A program made the position numbers and the translations under genes. Below are positions 24,597-35,655 of a stretch of DNA of 64,000 nucleotides, piece after piece. Position 1 is the stretch's first letter. Each line of letters begins with the position of its first letter. The notes beneath the pieces were generated by a model. It did not search any database. It was not told the DNA's origin and saw only the letters and a program-made list of their open reading frames with translations. Origin of the DNA: Pyrodictiaceae archaeon (GTDB lineage: Archaea; Thermoproteota; Thermoprotei_A; Sulfolobales; WANQ01); NCBI GenBank assembly GCA_015521735.1, contig WANQ01000043.1:30454-94453 (forward strand), given 5' to 3'.

Positions 24597-25685
24597 ATGT
24601 CTCTAACAGGATTATACTACGGTAAACCCGTGGAACTAGTAAAGCTTTTCAATACATTGAAGTCTAGAGGATACAAGGTAATAGGACCTAAGGTTGTTGA
24701 AGGTGTTATAAGGTTAGAGGAACTAGGCTCCTATGAAGAATTAGCAAGCAATGTAAGTGATATACAAGAACCTGGTAGATACAGGCTTGTAGACGGAGGC
24801 AAGTATTTTAGGCATGGACCTGATTCTCCTAAGAAGATGCTCTATCCGCCAAGACTAACATTGTTTAGGATTACTAAAGACTATAGGATAGAGGTACCAG
24901 AAGTAGAAGTACCTAAGATAGCCTTCTTCGCCTTAAAGCCATGTGATTTAGCGGCAATACAGGTTATGGACCGGGTTCAAGGCTGTTTAGGTGATGCATA
25001 CTATAACTTAGTAAGAAGGAATCTCGTCATAGTAGTTGAGAACTGTGTAGAACCTGGAGGAACATGTTTTTGTGCAACTATGGGTACTGGGCCAATAGCT
25101 TCTAAGGGATTTGATGTTGCTTTTACACGTATAAGAGATGACTTAGTGGTATTTGAGGCTGGTAGTAGCCTGGGAGTAGAGCTACTTGACGAACTAGAAC
25201 TAGAGCCTCTTGACGAGAAACTCTATAGGGAGTTCATTGATGTCGTACGTAGAGCTTACTCTAAGGCTAGACCCATAGAACTACCAGATAAGTTACCAGA
25301 ACTATTAGAGCTCACCTTAGACTCAGACATGTATAAGGAGATAGCTGAAAAATGCCTAGGATGCGCTAACTGCAACATGGTTTGCCCTACATGCTTCTGC
25401 TTTGACGTAATAGACATACCATACTATGATGGATCAGCTGAGAGAGTAAGGGTATGGGATGGATGCTTCTCCTACAATTACGCTGCAGTAGCTGGAGGAC
25501 ACTATCGTCCAGATCTATGGGCTAGGTATCGCCACTGGTTTCTACACAAATTCTCGTACTGGGTTAAGCAGTTTGGAACCTATGGATGTGTTGGATGTGG
25601 TAGATGTATCACATGGTGTCCTGTAGGAATAGATGTACGTGATACTCTCCGTAGAGCTATAAAGGAGGCTGAAAAACATGGTTAA
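24597..25685 (+). CDS. hydB: Group 3b sulfhydrogenase beta subunit (Fe-S)
   Basis: KPCDL, CFCATMGTGP, CLGCANCNMVCPTCFC and GCVGCGRCITWCP. Confidence 0.93.
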   Translation: MSLTGLYYGKPVELVKLFNTLKSRGYKVIGPKVVEGVIRLEELGSYEELASNVSDIQEPGRYRLVDGGKYFRHGPDSPKKMLYPPRLTLFRITKDYRIEVPEVEVPKIAFFALKPCDLAAIQVMDRVQGCLGDAYYNLVRRNLVIVVENCVEPGGTCFCATMGTGPIASKGFDVAFTRIRDDLVVFEAGSSLGVELLDELELEPLDEKLYREFIDVVRRAYSKARPIELPDKLPELLELTLDSDMYKEIAEKCLGCANCNMVCPTCFCFDVIDIPYYDGSAERVRVWDGCFSYNYAAVAGGHYRPDLWARYRHWFLHKFSYWVKQFGTYGCVGCGRCITWCPVGIDVRDTLRRAIKEAEKHG

Positions 25686-26514
25686 ACTTGAATACAAGCT
25701 CATACCTAAGATAGCTGTTGTAGAAGATGTTAGAGAGGAAACACCCAACGTAAGAACATTTTATTTAAGAGTAGATGATTTAGGCCAAGAACCACTACCA
25801 GGGCAATTCAATGAACTCTATATTCCTGGTGGTGGCGAGGTACCAATATCTGTTAGCGATATAGTTGAAGTGAACGGTAGGAAGCTTATAGCCCATACTG
25901 TTAGGTTTATTGGAAGTGTTACCTGGATGTTTAGTAGGCTAGAGAAGGGTTCACGTATAGGTATAAGAGGACCCTACGGTAAGGGCTGGCCTATTGAAAG
26001 GCTTAGAGGTAGGGATATACTATTAGTTGCAGGTGGCTTAGGCTTAGCTCCTCTTAGACCAGTTATACGTGAAGTAGAGAGGAACCGTGGCCTATATGGT
26101 AGACTCATAATACTGTATGGTGCACGTACACCAAGAGATCTCCTATACCGTTACGAATATCATCGATACGAGGATATACCTAATACAGAGCTATTAGTAA
26201 CAGTTGATAAAGCTACTAGTTCATGGAGAGGCCATGTAGGAGTTGTAACTAAGCTTATACCGCTAGTAGAGCTAGACGTTGAGAATACTATAGCTCTCGT
26301 ATGTGGACCAGAAATAATGATGAGGTTCACGGTTAAGGAGTTGAAGAAGAGGGGGTTCAAGGACAATCAAATCTACCTATCACTTGAAAGGAGAATGAAG
26401 TGTGGTGTAGGCTTATGTGGCCACTGTCAAATGGGACCCTACTTCGTATGTAAGCATGGACCTGTTTTCCCCTACTGGTTTATCAAGAAGTACTTCTGGG
26501 TGGATCAAATATGA
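25678..26514 (+). CDS. hydG: Group 3b sulfhydrogenase gamma subunit (FAD/NAD(P), 2Fe-2S)
   Basis: PGQF...GEVPIS, RGPYGKG, AGGLGLAP and MKCGVGLCGHC...VCKHGP. Confidence 0.93.
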   Translation: MVKLEYKLIPKIAVVEDVREETPNVRTFYLRVDDLGQEPLPGQFNELYIPGGGEVPISVSDIVEVNGRKLIAHTVRFIGSVTWMFSRLEKGSRIGIRGPYGKGWPIERLRGRDILLVAGGLGLAPLRPVIREVERNRGLYGRLIILYGARTPRDLLYRYEYHRYEDIPNTELLVTVDKATSSWRGHVGVVTKLIPLVELDVENTIALVCGPEIMMRFTVKELKKRGFKDNQIYLSLERRMKCGVGLCGHCQMGPYFVCKHGPVFPYWFIKKYFWVDQI

Positions 26515-27284
26515 AGAAGCTCCGTATAGCTGTTTACAAGTTTGCTAGTTGTGATGGATGCCAGCTACAGCTACTTAACCTTGAAGACGAGTTACTGGAT
26601 CTTGTAGAACACGTAGAGTTTGCAATGTTCTATGAGGCTAGTAGTGATGTTAAGCCAGGACCCTACGATGTAGCATTCATTGAAGGAGCAGTATCAACTC
26701 CTGAAGAAGAAGAAATCGTTAGGAAGGCTAGAGAGGAGTCTAAGATAGTTGTAGCTATTGGTGCATGTGCTACTGCTGGAGGAATACAGGCTCTTAGAAA
26801 CTGGGCTAATGTTGAAGAATACAAGAAGTACGTCTACCCTAACCCCGAATGGATTAAAGCCTTAGAGAAAGCCCACCCCATTTCAGATTACATTAAGGTA
26901 GACTACGAGATACGTGGATGCCCAGTAAGTAAGGAGCAGTTATCATTCTTTATAAGACAGTTACTCATAGGCAAGAAGCCTACACTACCAGTTGATAGCG
27001 TATGCATGGAGTGTAAGATGAAGGGTAATGTATGCTTAATGGTTACAAAGGGAATACCATGCCTAGGGCCCGTAACCATGGCTGGATGCGGTGCTATATG
27101 CCCAAGTTACGGACGTGGATGCTATGGATGCTATGGGCCCATGATTGACCCTAAACCCAGAGCATTAGCACAAGCATTCGTAAAGATGATGGGGTTGAGT
27201 AAACGGGATGTAGCTTTATTGTTCAAATCATTTACTGGTTGGAGTAAACCATTCCGTGAGGTGGTAGATGAGTATGGCAAGTGA
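26511..27284 (+). CDS. hydD: Group 3b [NiFe]-hydrogenase small (delta) subunit
   Basis: SCDGC, GACATAGG, RGCP and VCMEC...CLGPVTMAGCGAICP...CYGCYG. Confidence 0.94.
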   Translation: MKKLRIAVYKFASCDGCQLQLLNLEDELLDLVEHVEFAMFYEASSDVKPGPYDVAFIEGAVSTPEEEEIVRKAREESKIVVAIGACATAGGIQALRNWANVEEYKKYVYPNPEWIKALEKAHPISDYIKVDYEIRGCPVSKEQLSFFIRQLLIGKKPTLPVDSVCMECKMKGNVCLMVTKGIPCLGPVTMAGCGAICPSYGRGCYGCYGPMIDPKPRALAQAFVKMMGLSKRDVALLFKSFTGWSKPFREVVDEYGK

Positions 27285-28578
27285 AGTAGAAAGAACATTT
27301 AAAGTAGACTACCTTGCTAGAGTTGAAGGAGAAGGTAGAGTCTACGTTAAGATGAGAAATGGTAGAATAGAGAGAGTTGAAGTAGGAATATTTGAGCCTC
27401 CTAGATTCTTTGAAGCATTCCTTAGAGGTAGAAAATACCTTGAGGTACCAGATATTACAGCTAGAATCTGTGGTATATGCCCAATAGCATATATCATGAG
27501 CTCTAGCCGTGCATTCGAGAAATTATTTGGCATAGAGTTAACTGAAGAACTCAAAACGCTTAGAAGAATAATCTACCTAGGCGAATGGATAGAAAGCCAC
27601 ATGCTACACATAGCAATGCTCCATGCACCAGACTTCCTAGGATGCCATAGCATAATAGAGATAGCAAGAAAGCATCCACAATTCGCAAAAGACTCTCTAC
27701 TAGTCAAGGCATGGGGTAATAAGGTCATAGAAGTTATAGGTGGTAGATCAGTACACCCAGTTTCATGCCGTGTTGGGGGATTCCACCGAATAATAAAACG
27801 TGAACAACTACTAGGACTACTAAAGAAAATATATGATGTAAAAAATGCTGCTAAGAGAATACTTGAATTCGTACTACAACTACCAATACCAGATTTCAAA
27901 CGAGACATAGAGTTCATGTCACTTAAAGGAGATAAAGAGTACCCAATACTTGAAGGTAGAGTTGTATCCAATAAGGGCATAGATGTACCAGAAGACGAGT
28001 TCGAGAAAGTAGTAGAAGTACAACAAGTACCATACTCTAATGCACTAAGATACAGGGTTAAGGGTAGAGGAACATATGTTACCGGGCCTATAGCAAGATT
28101 CAATCTAAACTACAAGCTACTACTACCAGAGGTAAGAGAAGTAGTAGAAGCCTATGGATATAAGGCACCATTAACAAATACTTATCAAAGCATTATAGCA
28201 AGAGCAGCAGAAGTATACCAAGCAGTCCTAGAACTAGAAGAACTAATATTATCATATCGTGAACCTAGTCAACCATACATAGAAGGCGAAGTAAGAGAGG
28301 GGTGGAGTGCAGCTATAACGGAGGCACCAAGGGGAATGCTTTACCATGCCTATAGAGTAGATAGTGAAGGATACGTAGTAGATGCTAACATAATACCTCC
28401 TACAGCACAAAACCTAGCAGCAATGGAGGAGGACATAAAAGCACAGGAAGAAGTACTGTGGCGTGAACCCTATGAGAAAGCAAAACTACTAGTACAGCAA
28501 ACAATAAGAAACTATGATCCATGCATATCATGCTCCGTACATACGGTAAAAGTAATAATAGAGAAACAACATTCTTAG
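27268..28578 (+). CDS. hydA: Group 3b [NiFe]-hydrogenase large (alpha) subunit
   Basis: ARVEGEG, RICGICP, EAPRG and YDPCISCSVH plus extension. Confidence 0.95.
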   Translation: MSMASEVERTFKVDYLARVEGEGRVYVKMRNGRIERVEVGIFEPPRFFEAFLRGRKYLEVPDITARICGICPIAYIMSSSRAFEKLFGIELTEELKTLRRIIYLGEWIESHMLHIAMLHAPDFLGCHSIIEIARKHPQFAKDSLLVKAWGNKVIEVIGGRSVHPVSCRVGGFHRIIKREQLLGLLKKIYDVKNAAKRILEFVLQLPIPDFKRDIEFMSLKGDKEYPILEGRVVSNKGIDVPEDEFEKVVEVQQVPYSNALRYRVKGRGTYVTGPIARFNLNYKLLLPEVREVVEAYGYKAPLTNTYQSIIARAAEVYQAVLELEELILSYREPSQPYIEGEVREGWSAAITEAPRGMLYHAYRVDSEGYVVDANIIPPTAQNLAAMEEDIKAQEEVLWREPYEKAKLLVQQTIRNYDPCISCSVHTVKVIIEKQHS

Positions 28579-28596: not shown

Positions 28597-30018
28597 TTAC
28601 TTTCTCAAATATTTTCCTTCAACTATTTTTAGCGTCCTATACCTACACTCCACACATACCTCAAATGGTGACCTTGAGTAGGGTTGTCCACCACCCATTA
28701 TACATCCATTAGGGCATATGTATAATACTATTGTTCCAGTCTTTATCAATCCTCTCTTAACAGCCTCTAGTATACCCTTTACTTCATAAGGTCCTACAGC
28801 TTTAACATACCCATATGTTTTAGGCATTATTTCTCCATCAGGTTTACTAGGTCTTAGGTCTTTTAGATCCATCTTTTTCAGCATTACTTGTAATTCTCTT
28901 GTAGTTATAACGTGTTCTCCATGTAGTTTTCTTGCAACACATTGCGTTATTAGTACACTATGATATCCTAGTCTTGGTGTTGGTGGACGTACAAGGTATT
29001 TCCTTAGTTCAGGGTAGAACTGGTTTACATACTTGTATTCTGCTTCGCTTACTGGCACTATGTTTAACTCGTGTGTGAGCTGTATGTCTGCTAAAGGCGA
29101 CCATATTATTATCCTAGTAAATCCTAGTTCTCTAAGCGCGGTAATAACCTTACCAGGATCTACTTCTTCTGCTTCTGCTAGTGCTGCTAATGCTTCTGGC
29201 TCTATGTATGCTATTGGATTATGTTTTGAGAGGAGCCCTTGAACGTTTTCTATATCATTTCTGTAAACTAGGGCTCCTACAGGACAGTAAGCTGTACATA
29301 AACCACATAGTATGCATGTAGTGTTCTCAAATGGCTCATAGAATGGTGTTGCAACTGCTATGTCTATTCCACGGTTAACGAATCCTAAAGCATTTACACC
29401 TAGACTACTACATACTCCAACGCATCTACCACAAATAATACATTTATCTGCATGGAGCCTTAGTATCTTACCCCTAATATCACGTAAGTATTCACGACAG
29501 AACTCAAATCTCCTCTCACCTTGCTTAAACCATGATCCTCCCACTATCTTGGCTATGAGTTCTACTAACTCCCACTTGTTAATTGGGCATCCTCTTAGCC
29601 AGTAATCAACTCTAACATATCTTGAAATAGGTTCTCCTTCAATGATTCCTTCATGCTTCTCTTCGCTTCCATAGACTTTCTTTACTCCATTAATGCTTCT
29701 TCCTTTCATAAGCCCTGGTATTCCTCCTAGGAGACTACATGTACCTAGGGCTACTAGTATCTTCGCCTTTCTCCTAATCTCCTTTAGCTTCTCAGCATCC
29801 TCTATGGAAGCTACTGCTCCTTCAACGAATACTATATCGTATTCCTCTCTTTCACTAGTATAGCCTAAAAGAGGTTCATAGGCTATTTCTATACCGTATT
29901 TCTCCATTAACTCGATTAGCTTCTCACCTAGATTAACTATTTCATGCCTACATCCCTCGCATCCTGCTAGAGAGTATATTCCTACAATAATTTTGTCTGC
30001 CATGGATTTATACCTCAA
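28597..30018 (-). CDS. Chimera: [NiFe] small-subunit proximal-cluster domain + 2x[4Fe-4S] + degenerate [FeFe]-hydrogenase H-cluster domain
   Basis: GCEGC/EGAV/GTC/RGCP; then CIICGRCVGVC...NRG...CILCGLCTAYCPVGAL; then ALRELGF, QFYPEL, QCVARK, VITTREL and CPNGCIMGGGQP. Likely start is the ATG at 30003. Confidence 0.88.
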   Translation of the reverse strand: MRYKSMADKIIVGIYSLAGCEGCRHEIVNLGEKLIELMEKYGIEIAYEPLLGYTSEREEYDIVFVEGAVASIEDAEKLKEIRRKAKILVALGTCSLLGGIPGLMKGRSINGVKKVYGSEEKHEGIIEGEPISRYVRVDYWLRGCPINKWELVELIAKIVGGSWFKQGERRFEFCREYLRDIRGKILRLHADKCIICGRCVGVCSSLGVNALGFVNRGIDIAVATPFYEPFENTTCILCGLCTAYCPVGALVYRNDIENVQGLLSKHNPIAYIEPEALAALAEAEEVDPGKVITALRELGFTRIIIWSPLADIQLTHELNIVPVSEAEYKYVNQFYPELRKYLVRPPTPRLGYHSVLITQCVARKLHGEHVITTRELQVMLKKMDLKDLRPSKPDGEIMPKTYGYVKAVGPYEVKGILEAVKRGLIKTGTIVLYICPNGCIMGGGQPYSRSPFEVCVECRYRTLKIVEGKYLRK

Positions 30019-30019
30019 C

Positions 30020-31291
30020 TTATTGTTTAACTACAACATGGACAGCACATGGAAGACATGGATCGTATGCTCTAACAAGCATTGACAAATACTTTTTAGC
30101 TTCAACTACGTCTAATTCTCCTTCAACTATCTTCTTACCCAAGGTCATAGCTGAGTGTTCTATGTGGAGGGCATTCATTGCTGTAGGCGTTATTATATTA
30201 GCGTATACTACTCTACCCTCACTATCAACCCTATAATGATGTATGAGTAGTCCTCTAGGTGCTTCAAGTACTCCTACTCCTTCACCACTACGTATGGTGT
30301 ATTCTGTTCTTAGCCTAAGATCCCTATCTTTCAGTTCATCTAGCTTCTCCTTAACATCCATTATAGTTGCTAGTATTTCTAGTGCCTTAGCCTTAATGTT
30401 GGCGTAGGGATTGTTTAGTTCCTTTACAATAGATGACACGTAGTCCTCTAATCCTACTAGTCTCTCACCATACTCCAACACTCTTGCACGTGAGCCAACA
30501 TAGAATACTCTACCATTATATCTGTAAACCTTGGAGTTTGAGTAGTCTACTACCTCCTCTGAGATATACTTAGGGTAGTCTACGGCCCTGAACTTCTCCC
30601 CAGTAGACGATAGAATATAGTCGCCTATGGAGAGATAGCCTATAGGTGATTCAGATACAAGGTATACTGGTGAAGGATCTACTAGTTCTGGTAGTTCAAG
30701 CCTAGTTACATGGTCTACTACTTCTCTTGCAAGCTTCTCTGCCTCACCTAGTATCCTCACAGCTTTCTCTACTTTATCCTTTGAAGGCTTCTTTGTAAAT
30801 CCTCCAATTCTATAAGTATTCGGGTTTACTATCCTACCTGCTAATAGCTCAACTACTTGTAAGCATAAGTTGTTTAGCTTAAACCCTACTTTAATTAAGT
30901 CTGGATTCCTTGATAGAAGCTCTGATAAAGTCCTAGCATTATAGTAGTCTGGTAGTGCTAGGAAGAATAAGTGTACTACATTGTTTTGTGCTACCTGTAT
31001 CTTGTTCATGGATTCTTTTAGCAGTATTATATCATCTGGTAGCTCTACTCCCAGCGCGTTTTCTATTGCTGTAATCGATGCTAAGAAATGTGCTATACTA
31101 CATGCTCCACATATTCTTGACGCTATTATTGGTGCTTCATCTACTTTTCTACCCTCTATTACAGCTTCTATAAGCCTCATATCATGTACTACACGGAATT
31201 TTGCGTCAACACTACCATTCCTTAAGCTTAGCCTTAACTCTAGGTGTCCGAATACTTTATCTATTCTCTCGCTTAGCTCGAGATAGCTCAC
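30020..31291 (-). CDS. Group 3-type [NiFe]-hydrogenase large subunit (divergent)
   Basis: SRICGACSIAH, EAPRGLLIHHY and YDPCLPCAVH followed by VVVKQ. Confidence 0.92.
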   Translation of the reverse strand: MSYLELSERIDKVFGHLELRLSLRNGSVDAKFRVVHDMRLIEAVIEGRKVDEAPIIASRICGACSIAHFLASITAIENALGVELPDDIILLKESMNKIQVAQNNVVHLFFLALPDYYNARTLSELLSRNPDLIKVGFKLNNLCLQVVELLAGRIVNPNTYRIGGFTKKPSKDKVEKAVRILGEAEKLAREVVDHVTRLELPELVDPSPVYLVSESPIGYLSIGDYILSSTGEKFRAVDYPKYISEEVVDYSNSKVYRYNGRVFYVGSRARVLEYGERLVGLEDYVSSIVKELNNPYANIKAKALEILATIMDVKEKLDELKDRDLRLRTEYTIRSGEGVGVLEAPRGLLIHHYRVDSEGRVVYANIITPTAMNALHIEHSAMTLGKKIVEGELDVVEAKKYLSMLVRAYDPCLPCAVHVVVKQ

Positions 31292-31959
31292 TTCTTTTCA
31301 CCTCCATTATAGGTTTCTAGTAATATGTTGTAGATCTTGTCTAGGCTTGGGTGATTATTCCAGAATAACTTCATCTTAGAGAATACTTCTTCTAATGGTA
31401 TTTTATGCTCCTTGTAGAGCCTAGCCGCCTCAACTAGTACGTCTCTACGTGTTATAGGGCCACGACATCCTATACATATAGTTCCTTCTCTAGTACAGGG
31501 GCTACCACAACCAGCTATAGTTATTGGGCCTAGGCATGGTTCTCCTCTTACTAGTAAACACTCGTTTCCGTGGAGAGGGCATTCAGCACATACTGGTATG
31601 CCTTCTACACCATATTCTCTTGCTAAGTCTAGTAGTTGGCAGAATCCGCCTTTCCTTGGACAAGACTGGCATTTAATTTTATGGGATGCTAGTATTAGTT
31701 CTAGTATTACTCTACGGTTACGTCTAACTCTCTCTGTATTAGTGTAGACTCTTAGCCCCTCTGATACAGGGTAGGCGCAAGCTGGTACTAGTCTACCGTT
31801 ACCTAGTTCTACAATACATATTCTACATGATGCTTCACGGTATATTCCCTTGAAGAAGCATAGTGTTGGAACACTATATCCAGCCTTAATTACAGCGTCA
31901 ATTATATATGATCCCTCCCCTACTTCTACTTCTTTATCATTAACGTAGACCTTAACCAT
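31288..31959 (-). CDS. Chimera: HydA/NuoG N-terminal [2Fe-2S] and His-ligated [4Fe-4S] domains + [NiFe] small-subunit C-terminal Fe-S domain
   Basis: VPTLC...SCRICIVE...PAC and HKIKCQSC...FCQL, then VCAEC...CLGPITIAGCGSPC...CIGCRGP. Confidence 0.88.
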   Translation of the reverse strand: MVKVYVNDKEVEVGEGSYIIDAVIKAGYSVPTLCFFKGIYREASCRICIVELGNGRLVPACAYPVSEGLRVYTNTERVRRNRRVILELILASHKIKCQSCPRKGGFCQLLDLAREYGVEGIPVCAECPLHGNECLLVRGEPCLGPITIAGCGSPCTREGTICIGCRGPITRRDVLVEAARLYKEHKIPLEEVFSKMKLFWNNHPSLDKIYNILLETYNGGEKK

Positions 31960-31968
31960 ACCGTATTA

Positions 31969-33924
31969 TCACCTCTTCTCAACTGCTCCTACAGGACAAA
32001 CAATATAGCATTGACCACAGTGAATACACTTTGACTTATCAATTACATGGGGCTTACCTAGTTCACCTGAAATAGCTTTAGATGGACAATTTCTTGCACA
32101 AGTACCACATCCAGTACATTTGTCAGGGTTAATCCAGTACTCTACTAGCTTAGTACATACTTTTGCAGGACAACGCTTACTACGAACATGTGCTAGGTAC
32201 TCGTCCTTGAAGTATCGTAGCGTTGACAATACTGGGTTAGGGGCTGTTCCACCGAGAGCACATAAGCTTGAACTCCTAATTACATTTCCTAGCTCTTCTA
32301 GTACTTCTAGATCCTCTTCACTTCCTTCACCATTAGTTATCTTTTCCAGTATATCGTAGAGTATCTTCATCCCTATGCGGCATGGGAAACACTTGCCACA
32401 GGATTCTGCTACAGTAAAGCTTGTAAAGAACTTAGCTACATCAACCATACAGCTATGGTCATCTATTACTACTATTCCACCAGAACCCATTATTGCTCCA
32501 GCTTTCTGCAATGTCTCGTAGTCTATTGGTGTTGATAGTAGGCTTGCAGGTACACATCCACCACTAGGCCCACCTATCTGTACTGCTTTGATTTTCCTAC
32601 CTTCTGGTGGTCCTCCAGCAATCTCTACTACTAGCTTCTCTATTGTTGTCCCTACTGGTACTTCGTAGGCACCAGTACGTTTAACTGAACCCGTTACACA
32701 GAACATCTTAGTACCCTTAGTCTTCTCTGTACCATACTTGGCGAACTTCTCCCATCCCTCAGCCATTATCGTTGCTACATGAGCTAGTGTCTCAACATTA
32801 TTGATTATGGTAGGTTTACCCCATAGTCCACGTGTTGCTGGATAAGGTGGTCTTTGCCTAGGCCTAGTCCTCCCCTCTATTGCTGCGATTAACGCTGTTT
32901 CTTCTCCACATACAAAGGCTCCTGCACTAAGGATTACTTCTACGTCAAAGCTAAAGCCTCTTCCAAGAATATTGTCTCCTAGTAGACCATACTTTCTTGC
33001 CTGCTCAACAGCTTTTGATAAGCGCTCAGCCATTAATGGTTTTTCTGCTCTAACGAATATGAAACCCTTACTCGCACCTATGGCGTAGGCTGCTATTATC
33101 ATTCCCTCAAGTACTCGGTGGGGATCTGATTCTGCTAGCAATCTATTCATGAATGCTCCAGGGTCTCCTTCATCAGCATTCATTATAATGTACTTGACGT
33201 CTCCTGGTTGCTCACGAGCAATCTTCCATTTCAGCCACGTTGGGAATCCTGCTCCTCCACGTCCACGTAGACCCGACTTCCTTATCTCCTCTATTACTTC
33301 CTCAGGCCTCATGTTTAGTGCTCGGTCTAGTCCACGGTATCCTCCAAGAGCTATGTACTCCTCTATTGACTCTGGATCAACTATTCCACAGTTCCTTGAA
33401 ACCCATCTTACCTGATTCCTCCATGGCTCAAGCTCGTCTAGTAGTGGCACCTTGTCTTCTCCTTTCGCATTACCAGTACGATTCCTTAATGCAAAAGCAC
33501 TTGATACATCTCCTTCAAGGTATTCTTTTATAATTCTTGGCACATCACTTGGCTTAACATTAGCGTAAATCGCTGAAGGCATACCCTTCTTAGACAGCTC
33601 TATCCATGGATCTATGTAGCACATCCCCATACATCCAGTTCTATGTATATCAGCTAGTATTCCACGTGACTTAACCTCTTTAACAACAGCTTCGTAGACT
33701 TCGTGTGCTCCAGCAGCAATAGTACAGCTAGCAAGTGGTACATTTATCTTAAACCCATGTCTACCATATCTTATCTCTTTAAGTCTTCTACTCCTCCTGA
33801 CACGGCATTCAACGTCTTCGTGACATAACGGTCCACTTAGTCTACACCTAATATAGTGGCGACAAGGATACTCAGGGCTATGCCAACATCTATTACAACA
33901 CTTATCCATTAATGTCCAGGTCAA
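31969..33924 (-). CDS. HydB/NuoF-type FMN/NADH subunit with Cys-rich and thioredoxin-like N-terminal domains and C-terminal 2x[4Fe-4S]
   Basis: GLRGRGGAGFPT, NADEGDPGAFM, CGEETAL, GGPSGG, ESCGKCFPCR, CPAKVC and two CxxCxxCxxxCP motifs. Confidence 0.94.
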   Translation of the reverse strand: MTWTLMDKCCNRCWHSPEYPCRHYIRCRLSGPLCHEDVECRVRRSRRLKEIRYGRHGFKINVPLASCTIAAGAHEVYEAVVKEVKSRGILADIHRTGCMGMCYIDPWIELSKKGMPSAIYANVKPSDVPRIIKEYLEGDVSSAFALRNRTGNAKGEDKVPLLDELEPWRNQVRWVSRNCGIVDPESIEEYIALGGYRGLDRALNMRPEEVIEEIRKSGLRGRGGAGFPTWLKWKIAREQPGDVKYIIMNADEGDPGAFMNRLLAESDPHRVLEGMIIAAYAIGASKGFIFVRAEKPLMAERLSKAVEQARKYGLLGDNILGRGFSFDVEVILSAGAFVCGEETALIAAIEGRTRPRQRPPYPATRGLWGKPTIINNVETLAHVATIMAEGWEKFAKYGTEKTKGTKMFCVTGSVKRTGAYEVPVGTTIEKLVVEIAGGPPEGRKIKAVQIGGPSGGCVPASLLSTPIDYETLQKAGAIMGSGGIVVIDDHSCMVDVAKFFTSFTVAESCGKCFPCRIGMKILYDILEKITNGEGSEEDLEVLEELGNVIRSSSLCALGGTAPNPVLSTLRYFKDEYLAHVRSKRCPAKVCTKLVEYWINPDKCTGCGTCARNCPSKAISGELGKPHVIDKSKCIHCGQCYIVCPVGAVEKR

Positions 33925-34451
33925 CTACCACCACCTTTAATCTTCTTCAATGCTAGTGAACGATATTTTGCAACAATACGTCTAGCATCACGTATGGTTA
34001 CATGCCCGTGAAGGTACCGCTCCTTACCATCCCTACTAATAACCATGACTACCGGTGCTAGACTACATGCACCAAAACATCTCGCCTTCTCTACACTAAC
34101 CGTTCCATCCTTTGCAGTATTCTCGTATTTCCCTAAACCCAAAAACCTCTTCATAGCCTCATAATTGTCTAGATTACCTTTAAGATGACAAGCCGTGCCC
34201 ATGCAGACTAGTATTATATAATACCCAGGTGGCTCAAGCTTAAACTGGTGATAGAATGTTGCAACATTAAGTACCTCACTTAACGGAATACCTGTTAACT
34301 TTGCAAGCTCCTCCAATGCTCTTCTAGGCAAATAGCCATAACGACTTTGTATCTCCTGTAACATACGCATAAGATACCTTCTCTCACCACGATACCTAGC
34401 AACTATACTAGATACCACGTTGACTACTGTTTGATTAACCAACGCATTCAC
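33921..34451 (-). CDS. HydC/NuoE-type [2Fe-2S] subunit
   Basis: YGYLP, VATFYHQF, VCMGTACHLKG and RCFGACSLAP. Confidence 0.94.
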   Translation of the reverse strand: MNALVNQTVVNVVSSIVARYRGERRYLMRMLQEIQSRYGYLPRRALEELAKLTGIPLSEVLNVATFYHQFKLEPPGYYIILVCMGTACHLKGNLDNYEAMKRFLGLGKYENTAKDGTVSVEKARCFGACSLAPVVMVISRDGKERYLHGHVTIRDARRIVAKYRSLALKKIKGGGS

Positions 34452-34617: not shown

Positions 34618-35655
34618 TTACTCTAGAAGTGGGAAGAATCGGCAACGACATGCTTTATCTCTTATACACCTACTAACAGTTATACGGGCTATGCTCATAG
34701 AACTTCTTATTACTGGTAGTATTTCCTCAGCTATCATAGTATTATGTTTTCCTAGTTCTCCTAAAAGCTCGTTAATATACTCCATTACGATTTCCTCTTT
34801 ACCTAATACCGTTAACGCCTTATTTATATCGTTACTTATATACGATGATATGGATGCTTCATATAGTTCTTGCAAGTAGCCTATGATTTTGTCTATTTCT
34901 TCTCCTAGTTCAACTCTATCCCTGCTAGGAGTACTAGCTATCATTCTAGCTAGTCTTGTAATAGAATCTGTTATCTCCTTGAGATCCCTTAAGACTATTA
35001 TGGAATCTATTATATCCTGTATATTCTTACCACGTACTACGTTTTTCTTAGAGGCTCTTAGGCCTAGATAGTATATTCCTTCAGCTTCCTCTTCTAAGTC
35101 TTTTAGCTCATCTAGTATTATTGTATTATTACTACGTACTAGTTTACGTGTTATACTGAATACTTGGTTAAGTGTAGTGGAGAACTTTTCTATAATGGGT
35201 TCAACGTTAACTGGAGCTTCCATGAACGTTAACTTATAGGAGTAGCCTTTAAGTCCGGGTAATACCACCATTCCGGGAAGCTTTTTCCTTAGTATCCTTA
35301 ATGATTCTCCTAGTACCTCTTGCTTGCCCTTCACGTGTATCTCGGATACACCTTCAATGTATGCTCCAATGACTTCTTCTACTAATTGCTTAGTACTTCT
35401 ACGAGTAGCATCCAATGCTATTCTTAGACCTAAAGGTTCTTCTGACACCTTCTCTCTTGGAGGGCGAACTATTATTGTATCTTCATGTTTTTCTAGTTCT
35501 ACTAGGTCTCCTACCTCTATACCTAGTTCACGACACCATTTCTTAGGTATGGTTATAGCATATGATGCTTCTCCTACTCTAAGTACTTTCCTTCGCTCCT
35601 TCTCTAAAGCCAATACACATAACACCCTACAATTACAAATTGTTGTAGTAGGCAA
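34618..35655 (-). CDS. AbrB-domain/PhoU-family transcriptional regulator
   Basis: ERRKVLRVGEASYAITIPKKW...GIEVGD AbrB domain, IGAYIEG and helical PhoU repeats; the start is probably some codons downstream. Confidence 0.85.
   Translation of the reverse strand: MPTTTICNCRVLCVLALEKERRKVLRVGEASYAITIPKKWCRELGIEVGDLVELEKHEDTIIVRPPREKVSEEPLGLRIALDATRRSTKQLVEEVIGAYIEGVSEIHVKGKQEVLGESLRILRKKLPGMVVLPGLKGYSYKLTFMEAPVNVEPIIEKFSTTLNQVFSITRKLVRSNNTIILDELKDLEEEAEGIYYLGLRASKKNVVRGKNIQDIIDSIIVLRDLKEITDSITRLARMIASTPSRDRVELGEEIDKIIGYLQELYEASISSYISNDINKALTVLGKEEIVMEYINELLGELGKHNTMIAEEILPVIRSSMSIARITVSRCIRDKACRCRFFPLLE

Follow-up and report, generated by a model that had tools for sequence, protein, structure and literature searches.

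How might a hydrogenase work whose small subunit and HydA-like subunit both appear to have been cut and rejoined crosswise, and what does its [FeFe]-derived half contribute? This question is raised by a five-gene locus, hydC-hydB-X-hyhL-Y, of a Pyrodictiaceae archaeon (assembly GCA_015521735.1). The locus lies in a 64,000-nucleotide stretch of contig WANQ01000043.1 (positions 30,454 to 94,453), referred to here as the window. Five open reading frames (ORFs) were found on the minus strand exactly where an initial annotation of the sequence had placed five coupled genes. Their spacing is tight, with 4-nt overlaps or gaps of 1-9 nt, and they are thus taken to form one operon (Table 1). With a probability of about 0.6, the encoded complex would be a soluble Bfu-type bifurcating or confurcating [NiFe] hydrogenase in which the H-cluster-fold domain of Y (H-domain) probably serves only as an Fe-S relay.

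Based on the agreement between its domain architecture, its gene set, and the published description, we assign the operon to the group F [FeFe]/group 3f [NiFe] hybrid family, which Greening et al. (2024, Cell; PMC11216029) described from 21 genomes that include Thermoproteia. As set out in the accessible text of that paper, the hybrid comprises a HyhS-HydA fusion, HyhL, HydB, HydC, and a NuoG-like four-cluster protein, HydD. The window encodes the same five genes with the same fusion order in Y, and X corresponds to HydD. Specifically, Y is a single polypeptide matching both Oxidored_q6 and Fe_hyd_lg_C; the genes for HyhL, HydB, HydC, and HydD are contiguous with it; and Y falls inside the clade of all HyhS-HydA fusions, with support of 99-100 in the Shimodaira-Hasegawa-like approximate likelihood ratio test (SH-aLRT). 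The initial annotation had put the crosswise complex forward as new. That claim fails because the five-gene architecture is already in print.

The same text states that the hosts of the hybrids are uncultivated and that two fusions were assayed, both from Thermoplasmata SG8-5 and both after artificial maturation with a synthetic [2Fe] cofactor. One was active at 5% of the algal enzyme and the other was barely active. The complex was modelled for a Thermoplasmatota metagenome-assembled genome (MAG), the cysteine ligands of the H-cluster were stated to be conserved for the modelled enzyme, and the presence of two "seemingly redundant" hydrogenase modules was called peculiar. A literature search for follow-up work on group F/3f found only this paper to be relevant; the accessible part of PMC11376134 held nothing on group F/3f. 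What the present analysis adds to the main text of PMC11216029 is modest: the homology of HydD to one part of a split small subunit, the ligands of the Bfu core, and a clade with an altered L1 site. The supplements and figures of that paper may already show some of this.

The crosswise halves of X and Y

Scanning X against family models placed Fer2_4 at residues 1-75 and NADH-G_4Fe-4S_3 at residues 82-120. The ligands in this half are C34, C45, C48, and C61 for the [2Fe-2S] cluster and H93, C97, C100, and C107 for the His-ligated [4Fe-4S] cluster. Compared with solved chains, X 5-125 aligned with residues 7-127 of Acetobacterium woodii HydA1 (7q4v_A; E 4.7e-24). The remainder of X resembles another protein: residues 121-213 match positions 164-258 of the 261-position sulfhydrogenase delta model, and residues 121-221 align with residues 161-260 of the delta subunit of Pyrococcus furiosus SHI (E 8.7e-20). 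The cysteines of this half are C124, C127, C134, C142, C151, C155, C162, and C165. Residues 124-169 also align with the neighboring delta subunit (its residues 165-211). All 11 aligned X proteins have the same ligands for all four clusters, from both halves. These domain and alignment matches bear out the initial annotation, which had read X as a HydA/NuoG N-terminus that switches at about residue 120 to the medial/distal domain of a group 3 small subunit, had noted its likeness to the neighboring small subunit, and had predicted the Fer2_4, NADH-G_4Fe-4S_3, and small-subunit C-domain (here the sulfhydrogenase delta model) that were found.

Y carries the complementary parts. Oxidored_q6 was matched at residues 20-157 (84 bits), and residues 9-161 are 34% identical to residues 3-154 of the neighboring delta subunit. 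A two-cluster ferredoxin domain follows at residues 188-250, and Fe_hyd_lg_C was matched at residues 370-443 (34 bits against a cut-off of 22.1; E 3.2e-8). One candidate parse took the first 250 residues as a whole small subunit of the FrhG type, in which the ferredoxin domain would supply the medial and distal clusters next to a proximal one. Scanned alone, the ferredoxin domain scored 70.6 bits with FeFe A6, 57.4 bits with FeFe group A, and 44.5 bits with HoxU, and small-subunit models were absent among the 25 best families listed for it. Further, residues 141-278 and 467-512 of Thermoanaerobacter kivui HydA1 match Y 188-317 and 406-451. The FrhG-type parse was therefore rejected: the domain scores as HydA rather than as small subunit and is collinear with HydA into the H-domain, which favors the crosswise parse. 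Our assignment thus differs from the main text of PMC11216029, in which three [4Fe-4S] clusters of the fusion are assigned to the small-subunit part; two of them, the F-clusters, score here as HydA-type.

An AlphaFold model of Y, calculated on 56 relatives, had a mean predicted local distance difference test (pLDDT) score of 87.9. A Foldseek search with this model returned T. kivui HydA1 (8a6t_A) first (2e-19), then CpI. Using VIA-align, model residues 3-167 were superposed on residues 1-162 of SHI delta (9e15_A) with a Z of 21.7 and a root-mean-square deviation (rmsd) of 2.1 Å over 159 aligned residues, and model residues 164-468 on residues 86-540 of CpI with a Z of 27.4 and an rmsd of 3.1 Å over 302 aligned residues. 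The H-domain of Y is much shorter than that of CpI. The domain, alignment, and fold matches all agree with the earlier description of Y as the complement of X: a proximal-cluster domain, a HydA 2x[4Fe-4S] domain, and an H-cluster fold with the L3 motif that had been pointed out, including the anticipated Oxidored_q6, ferredoxin, and C-terminal Fe_hyd_lg_C similarities. That description went further in stating that X and Y together contain one full HydA and one full small subunit. This holds for the small subunit; HydA is not full, as its H-domain has ~215 residues and no L1 cysteine.

On these sequence matches, X and Y are best described as one three-cluster small subunit and one M3-type HydA, each cut once, with the halves joined crosswise. 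Domain matches and models together place only the proximal-cluster domain of the small subunit in the fusion Y and its medial/distal domain in the C-half of HydD (X). With respect to P. furiosus SHI/SHII (group 3b), the N-domain of Y and the C-domain of X cover SHI delta 1-162 and 161-260, respectively. Unlike SHI/SHII, the operon has no beta/gamma (GltD-like FAD) subunits, its delta subunit is divided between two fusions with HydA halves, and its diaphorase is of the NuoEF/Bfu type. With respect to the bifurcating [FeFe] HydABC enzymes of Thermotoga maritima, T. kivui, and A. woodii, the N-half of X and Y 184-473 are collinear with HydA, and HydB and HydC are homologous over their full length. 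Unlike those enzymes, the window system includes a [NiFe] module, its H-domain is shortened and without L1 cysteine, and HydE/F/G were not found. Such a reciprocal split-and-fuse of two Fe-S proteins would be a clean natural case of domain-swapped subunit evolution.

A predicted X-Y complex scored 0.86, while none of three controls rose above 0.00. Of 80 solved complexes, 58 reached this mark, as did 2 of 110 mismatched pairs. Since solved small subunits and HydA exist, the score speaks for likeness to solved proteins, which the predictor may have memorized, and not for binding. Runs agreed in at least 90% of contacts, with a partner pLDDT of at least 89. In the model, X 128-203 packs on Y 88-148 around the proximal-cluster ligands (e.g., X R166 with Y R137), the His-cluster segment X 87-109 on the F-cluster domain Y 184-259, and the [2Fe-2S] domain X 20-61 on the H-domain at Y 369-448. 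These are the contacts that crosswise assembly would require, and to that extent the model supports the pairing of X with Y.

A mundane explanation of the chimeras is that assembly or binning joined pieces of separate hydA and small-subunit genes. The genome is in 44 contigs, and the stretch was found in hydrothermal-vent metagenome runs; the source genome is therefore probably a MAG. Nevertheless, contigs from other samples span the junction near 29500 (X2 record 2, X3 record 9, X4 record 17) and the junction near 31600 (X2 record 8, X3 record 14), and a 40.5-kb contig from a different study (X5 record 25) covers the entire 5855 bases of the operon with 224 differing letters and 5 omitted. 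The same chimeras occur in 57 protein clusters, in 22 of the 151 sampled genomes of the order (11 of 59 genera for the Y fusion), and in loci of other phyla. Misassembly, which the initial annotation had raised for both junctions, was rejected on the strength of these independent contigs and of the same architecture in related loci; the chance that the chimeras are artefacts is vanishingly small.

Searches with Y returned 57 full-length relatives of 428-484 aa, one truncated, after which scores drop from 255 to 101 bits at bacterial HydA. The alignment of 56 relatives used throughout left out the truncated protein (P0042, 328 aa). Among twelve related loci, the gene order in the close clade is hydC-hydB-X-hyhL-Y; in three Thermoplasmatota loci it is hydC-hydB-Y-X-hyhL, and in one Hadarchaeota locus it is Y-hydC-hydB-X. 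X bears the delta C-terminal domain in all 10 related loci with an X ORF. The synteny comparison suggested earlier thus gave the same architecture in every related locus examined. At a Bathyarchaeia MAG locus (L012), the Y homologue lies in two overlapping ORFs, 1170-1448 and 1445-2350; a genuine break, a frameshift, or a sequencing error might each account for this.

The [NiFe] subunit and the HydB/HydC core

HyhL matches PF00374 (113.8 bits) and carries the NiFe ligand pairs C61/C64 and C412/C415. Its closest relative is the alpha subunit of P. furiosus SHI, of which residues 29-426 align with HyhL 25-420 (E 7e-62). With both CxxC pairs and homology over its full length, HyhL belongs with the group 3 [NiFe] large subunits. 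HypD and a maturation protease scored above cut-off in the source genome. The [NiFe] side, having all four cysteines and these maturation proteins, is thus fully equipped and maturable.

The product of hydC matches PF01257 (135 bits), and its cysteines 83, 88, 125, and 129 have the CxxxxC...CxxxC spacing of the C1 [2Fe-2S] cluster of BfuC. HydB residues 60-649 align with residues 7-593 of NfnB (9n5u_B; E 2.5e-221), residues 66-650 align with residues 15-596 of the NiFe-HydB of Acetomicrobium mobile (7t2r_B; E 7e-208), and HydB also aligns over its full length with T. maritima HydB. The best solved matches of HydB are all Bfu-type B subunits, with E values of 1e-190 or lower. According to the accessible text of Schut et al. 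2022 (PMC9304861), the B2 ligands of A. mobile HydB are C438, C476 (replaced by Thr in some two thirds of sequences), H525, C531, and C536, and the His is missing from nonbifurcating homologues. In the alignment to 7t2r_B, the window protein has C492, T530, H579, C585, and C590 at these positions, the ligand set of the Bfu family. A Fer4 pair at residues 597-648 (B3 and B4) aligns with 7t2r_B and 9n5u_B to the chain ends, and the N-terminal B5 domain aligns with the A. mobile protein over residues 60-150 with three matching cysteines and Ala in place of a fourth. Judged by the ligands of B2, B3/B4, and C1, HydB and HydC make up a complete Bfu-type bifurcation core. The soluble H2:NAD+/ferredoxin oxidoreductase function that had been suggested for the complex fits such a core and is likely.

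HydB has, in addition, a Cys-rich prefix with seven cysteines, upstream of where the solved HydB and NfnB chains begin to align (residue 43-93). The HydB alignments in four related loci (L006, L008, L009, L010) likewise begin at residue 1-2. At the Hadarchaeota locus (L015 4750-7401), HydB has 883 aa. In the Thermoplasmatota hybrids, HydB has only 432 aa and matches window HydB 170-590 (L014 5703-7001, L016 1709-3007, L017 5703-7001), and it is therefore without the N-terminal domain and the C-terminal 2x[4Fe-4S] domain. The window operon, unlike these loci with their hydC-hydB-Y-X-hyhL order, encodes a full Bfu-type HydB of 651 aa.

These modules could also belong to a nonbifurcating, Hox-like NAD(P)-linked [NiFe] hydrogenase, in which HydB/HydC would be a plain diaphorase and ferredoxin would not be a substrate. 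NuoE-, NuoF-, and NuoG-like modules do occur in nonbifurcating Hox, Fdh, and complex I (accessible text of Feng et al. 2022, PMC8880783, and of PMC9304861). The short Thermoplasmatota HydB, lacking the terminal Fe-S domains, indicates that not every hybrid need bifurcate. The fourth B5 cysteine position of A. mobile HydB, moreover, is Ala in the window protein, and Tyr in NfnB and 9bov_B. Opposed to this are the B2 histidine H579, which stands together with C492, T530, C585, C590, B3/B4, and the N-terminal domain, all of them features that PMC9304861 describes as missing from nonbifurcating homologues, and the exclusively Bfu-type best solved matches. A Hox-like enzyme therefore has only a slim chance of being correct.

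The nearest functional counterpart of a bifurcating [NiFe] enzyme with this composition is the A. mobile NiFe-HydABCSL. As far as the accessible text of PMC8880783 and PMC9304861 goes, every B2 ligand position is present in the Bfu-type HydB/HydC core of both systems, and both have an Fe-S conduit that derives from HydA but has no canonical H-cluster site. A group 3 [NiFe] module would feed into this conduit beside the His-ligated cluster. By analogy, they probably catalyze the same reversible reaction of H2, NAD+, and oxidized ferredoxin. The A. mobile HydA is a single chain of 692 aa, and its HydS is a separate, one-cluster protein of 179 aa; in the window, HydA is split, the small subunit has three clusters, and the parts are joined crosswise. 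A. mobile HydA matches Y over the ferredoxin domain only (E 7.7e-7), and the host here is archaeal. The window complex may thus be expected to work like NiFe-HydABCSL but is, on these comparisons, not a member of that family.

For the bifurcating enzyme, we propose that X and Y clasp each other, so that the small subunit and the HydA-like conduit are each made whole again. H2 would be split or made at the [NiFe] site of HyhL. Electrons would pass from HyhL to the proximal cluster in Y and on to the medial and distal clusters in the C-half of X, and from there through the His-ligated [4Fe-4S] cluster in the N-half of X, an F-cluster of Y, and the [2Fe-2S] cluster of X to B1/FMN (flavin mononucleotide) of HydB. 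The FMN/B2/C1 unit of HydB would couple NAD(H) with ferredoxin via B3/B4, as proposed for A. mobile NiFe-HydABCSL. In the A. mobile enzyme, the one-cluster HydS docks beside the His-ligated cluster, according to the accessible text of PMC8880783 and PMC9304861. In X, the medial/distal domain covalently follows the His-cluster domain, which would fit the A. mobile geometry with two extra relay clusters. The H-domain would form a side branch, and its [4Fe-4S]-type cluster would correspond to A5 in the HydA of A. mobile. The hydrothermal-vent source habitat suggests that the enzyme could be thermostable and useful for structural work on bifurcation.

The altered L1 site of the H-domain

The L1 motif of canonical HydA contains a pair of cysteines, the first a proton relay and the second a ligand of the cluster. 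At L1, the sequence of the T. kivui HydA1 structure is CCP, whereas that of the window protein is V-S-E. None of the 56 clade members has a cysteine at either L1 position: the second position is Ser in all 56, the preceding residue is variable, and a Glu three residues on is likewise invariant (56/56). The cysteines that are invariant among the 56 relatives comprise four of the proximal cluster, eight of the F-clusters, and three of the H-domain, namely one in L2 and two in L3. The three canonical cysteines of L2 and L3 are thus retained. In the window protein, these are C360 in L2 and C435 and C439 in L3; a C-terminal CxxC (C455, C458) is shared by only 11 of the 56 relatives, and there is no cysteine between C245 and C360. 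The residue three past the L2 cysteine is Arg, not Lys, and the stretch between L2 and L3 of bacterial HydA is largely deleted in this clade. In these respects, the window clade departs from the group F/3f description, having x-Ser where the accessible text of PMC11216029 states conserved H-cluster cysteines and having a shorter H-domain.

Other fusions retain cysteine at L1. Thermoplasmatota-type fusions read W-C-P in 16 of 16 cases, with the Cys aligned on the second Cys of CCP, and two Hadarchaeota fusions also keep a Cys. Among 401 sampled genomes of the window phylum, 18 had fusion-size frames; nine examined besides the window's own comprised two with P-C-C, one with P-C-S, and six without L1 cysteine, and the other eight (G400, G179, G270, G380, G465, G330, G172, G129) were left out. 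The counts with and without L1 cysteine are drawn solely from genome samples and from searches seeded with words. Total protein length is 428-484 aa in the L1-less group versus 485-622 aa in the Cys-keeping group, the H-domain of the former being about a third shorter. The fusions that keep the L1 cysteine may be partnered by another kind of diaphorase, possibly one outside the Bfu type.

A quick tree of 44 rows, rooted with an outgroup, joins the fusions in a single clade (SH-aLRT 100). Its earliest branches are those of Thermoplasmatota and Hadarchaeota (100), three Cys-keeping proteins of the window phylum follow (91), and the L1-less proteins, including that of the window, form a nested clade of 28 rows (97). 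An earlier quick tree of 51 rows agrees, with the fusions monophyletic (SH-aLRT 99) and apart from bacterial HydA; the two trees, earlier and later, took 32 and then 23 of the 56 L1-less proteins and were calculated without the reference sequences of PMC11216029. The simplest reading of these sequences would be a single loss of the L1 cysteine(s) on the stem of the L1-less clade, together with the shortening of the H-domain.

Based on the presence of only three cysteines, the Ser in place of the fourth, the missing proton-relay cysteine, and the H-domain being about a third shorter, the H-domain of the window clade most likely holds only a [4Fe-4S]-type cluster on a side branch rather than acting as a second site of H2 catalysis. 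Under the reading of PMC11216029, the [NiFe] site and an H-cluster in Y would both be active, the latter matured via an unknown archaeal pathway, and the complex would be a redox valve in which one module evolves H2 and the other consumes it. A clear H-cluster fold, evident in the Foldseek and VIA-align matches to T. kivui HydA1 and CpI, agrees with this, as do the invariant L2 and L3 cysteines and GGGQ. The accessible text of PMC11216029 adds that a Thermoplasmata group F fusion evolved H2 after artificial maturation. That lineage, however, keeps one L1 cysteine (16/16), versus none in 56 of 56 here, and the H-domain of the window clade is far shorter than in the L1-containing fusions, with the L2-L3 stretch of bacterial HydA largely deleted. 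We consider a dual catalyst unlikely, although it is the main alternative.

The maturases do not help to decide. HydE, HydF, and HydG, the maturases of canonical HydA, were not found above cut-off in the source genome, which was scored 100% complete, and HydG was above cut-off in none of the 151 genomes of the order. Taken alone, this would speak against a second catalyst. The accessible text of PMC11216029 reports, however, that most [FeFe]-bearing archaea are without HydE/F/G genes, and argues that this is usual where the [FeFe] enzymes are active. The absence was therefore dropped as evidence for a dead H-domain: maturases are usually missing in archaea, and HydG was also above cut-off in none of the five genomes whose fusions keep the L1 cysteine (three of them 77-82% complete).

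Besides this last result and the alanine in the B5 domain, several points weigh against a bifurcating enzyme with a noncatalytic H-domain. Among the nearest bacterial HydA relatives listed (P0058-P0120), 61 of 63 read TSCSPGW and two read TSCCPGW. The invariant Ser of the window clade matches the Ser of these 61, and Ser plus three Cys may therefore be a working ligand set. Accordingly, the argument that loss of the L1 cysteine means loss of the cluster was softened. A literature search on the TSCSPGW variant found one passing mention that it exists (accessible text of PMC3787301) and none on normal H-cluster binding. Next, L3 (CPxGCxxGGGQ), E268, E270, S319, and E322 (P0001 numbering) are invariant, and the invariance of L3, the Ser, and several Glu points to a site maintained under selection rather than a decayed remnant. 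The assayed Thermoplasmata enzyme is presumably also without the first, proton-relay cysteine, since its lineage has W there. Both trees were made by a quick method and contain long branches. Finally, we infer bifurcation, the cluster order, the catalytic direction, and the noncatalytic nature of the H-domain, the first three from homology and the predicted complex.

The same invariant residues invite a further interpretation. The former H-cluster pocket may have been rebuilt in the window clade (56/56) with the invariant Ser, Glu, a Glu-Pro-Glu, and the three Cys as a new Ser/Glu-ligated Fe-S site with an open or exchangeable iron, serving non-H2 chemistry or sensing (sulfur or another substrate, or gating of bifurcation). 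We rate this as rather improbable. If it were true, most "hybrid hydrogenases" would not be two redundant hydrogenases but would make up an enzyme class with a new function.

For the preferred reading of the H-domain as an Fe-S relay, the consequence is a different one. If most hybrids have an H-domain without the cysteine pair, the redundancy puzzle would be simple for that clade: a [NiFe]-driven Bfu enzyme that uses its [FeFe] part as wiring. That the [FeFe] half of the window clade departs from a feature treated as conserved in the accessible text of PMC11216029 is a modest but testable addition. In one long-branched relative, the Y homologue of L008 (6962-8302), L3 reads CPGGCAKGSG instead of containing GGGQ, and this H-domain may have degenerated further.

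Operon features and genomic setting

The genes and domains of the hybrid operon and of the adjacent genes are collected in Table 1. The ORF of Y starts at a TTG codon; the database version begins at an ATG five residues later.

Table 1. Predicted genes and protein features of the hybrid operon and its surroundings, by position in the window
Feature	Position	Strand	Description
hydC	33921-34451	-	176 aa; NuoE-like thioredoxin-fold [2Fe-2S] subunit (BfuC, cluster C1); 4-nt overlap with hydB
hydB	31969-33924	-	651 aa; Bfu-type FMN/NAD(H) subunit; N-terminal [2Fe-2S]-type domain, sites for FMN, B1, and B2, C-terminal 2x[4Fe-4S]
HydB prefix, residues 4-52	33769-33915	-	Extra Cys-rich "CCxxC NuoF prefix"; NF040902, 74.5 bits against a cut-off of 45
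X (hydD)	31288-31959	-	223 aa
X N-half, residues 1-120	31600-31959	-	HydA/NuoG-type [2Fe-2S] and His-ligated [4Fe-4S]
X C-half, residues 121-223	31291-31599	-	Medial/distal two-cluster domain of group 3 [NiFe] small subunit
hyhL	30020-31291	-	423 aa; group 3 [NiFe] large subunit
Y	28597-30018	-	473 aa
Y N-domain, ORF residues 8-172	29503-29997	-	Proximal-cluster domain of group 3 small subunit (C20, C23, C94, C144)
Y 2x[4Fe-4S] F-cluster domain, ORF residues 184-260	29239-29469	-	HydA type, not small-subunit type
Y H-cluster-fold domain, ORF residues 261-473	28600-29238	-	Shortened; ~215 residues
Y L1-equivalent segment VSEAE, ORF residues 323-327	29038-29052	-	Where canonical HydA has the CC pair
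Y L3 motif CPNGCIMGGGQP	28681-28716	-	Both Cys conserved in 56/56
Neighboring sulfhydrogenase operon	24597-28578	+	Group 3b-type; complete, four genes
Sulfhydrogenase beta	24597-25685	+	
Sulfhydrogenase gamma	25678-26514	+	
Sulfhydrogenase delta	26511-27284	+	
Sulfhydrogenase alpha	27268-28578	+	
Gene for 345-aa protein	34618-35655	-	AbrB/MazE-type DNA-binding domain at residues 29-68 (PF04014, E 2.4e-11)

The sulfhydrogenase operon converges on the hybrid operon, with 18 nt between its stop codon and that of Y. This adjacency was not seen in the related locus L006. A scan for sigma-70 promoters and terminators was at chance, with 19 sites versus 15.9 expected, the sigma-70 model not being applicable to archaea. 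Among the sequencing runs listed as containing the stretch, there was no RNA data set. The 345-aa protein is encoded directly upstream of hydC on the same strand and is a possible regulator of the hybrid operon. In the X5 strain, which is ~96% identical over the operon, 4 + 1 letters are omitted at 30019-30025, the boundary between the hyhL stop and the Y start, so that HyhL ends and Y begins differently in different strains.

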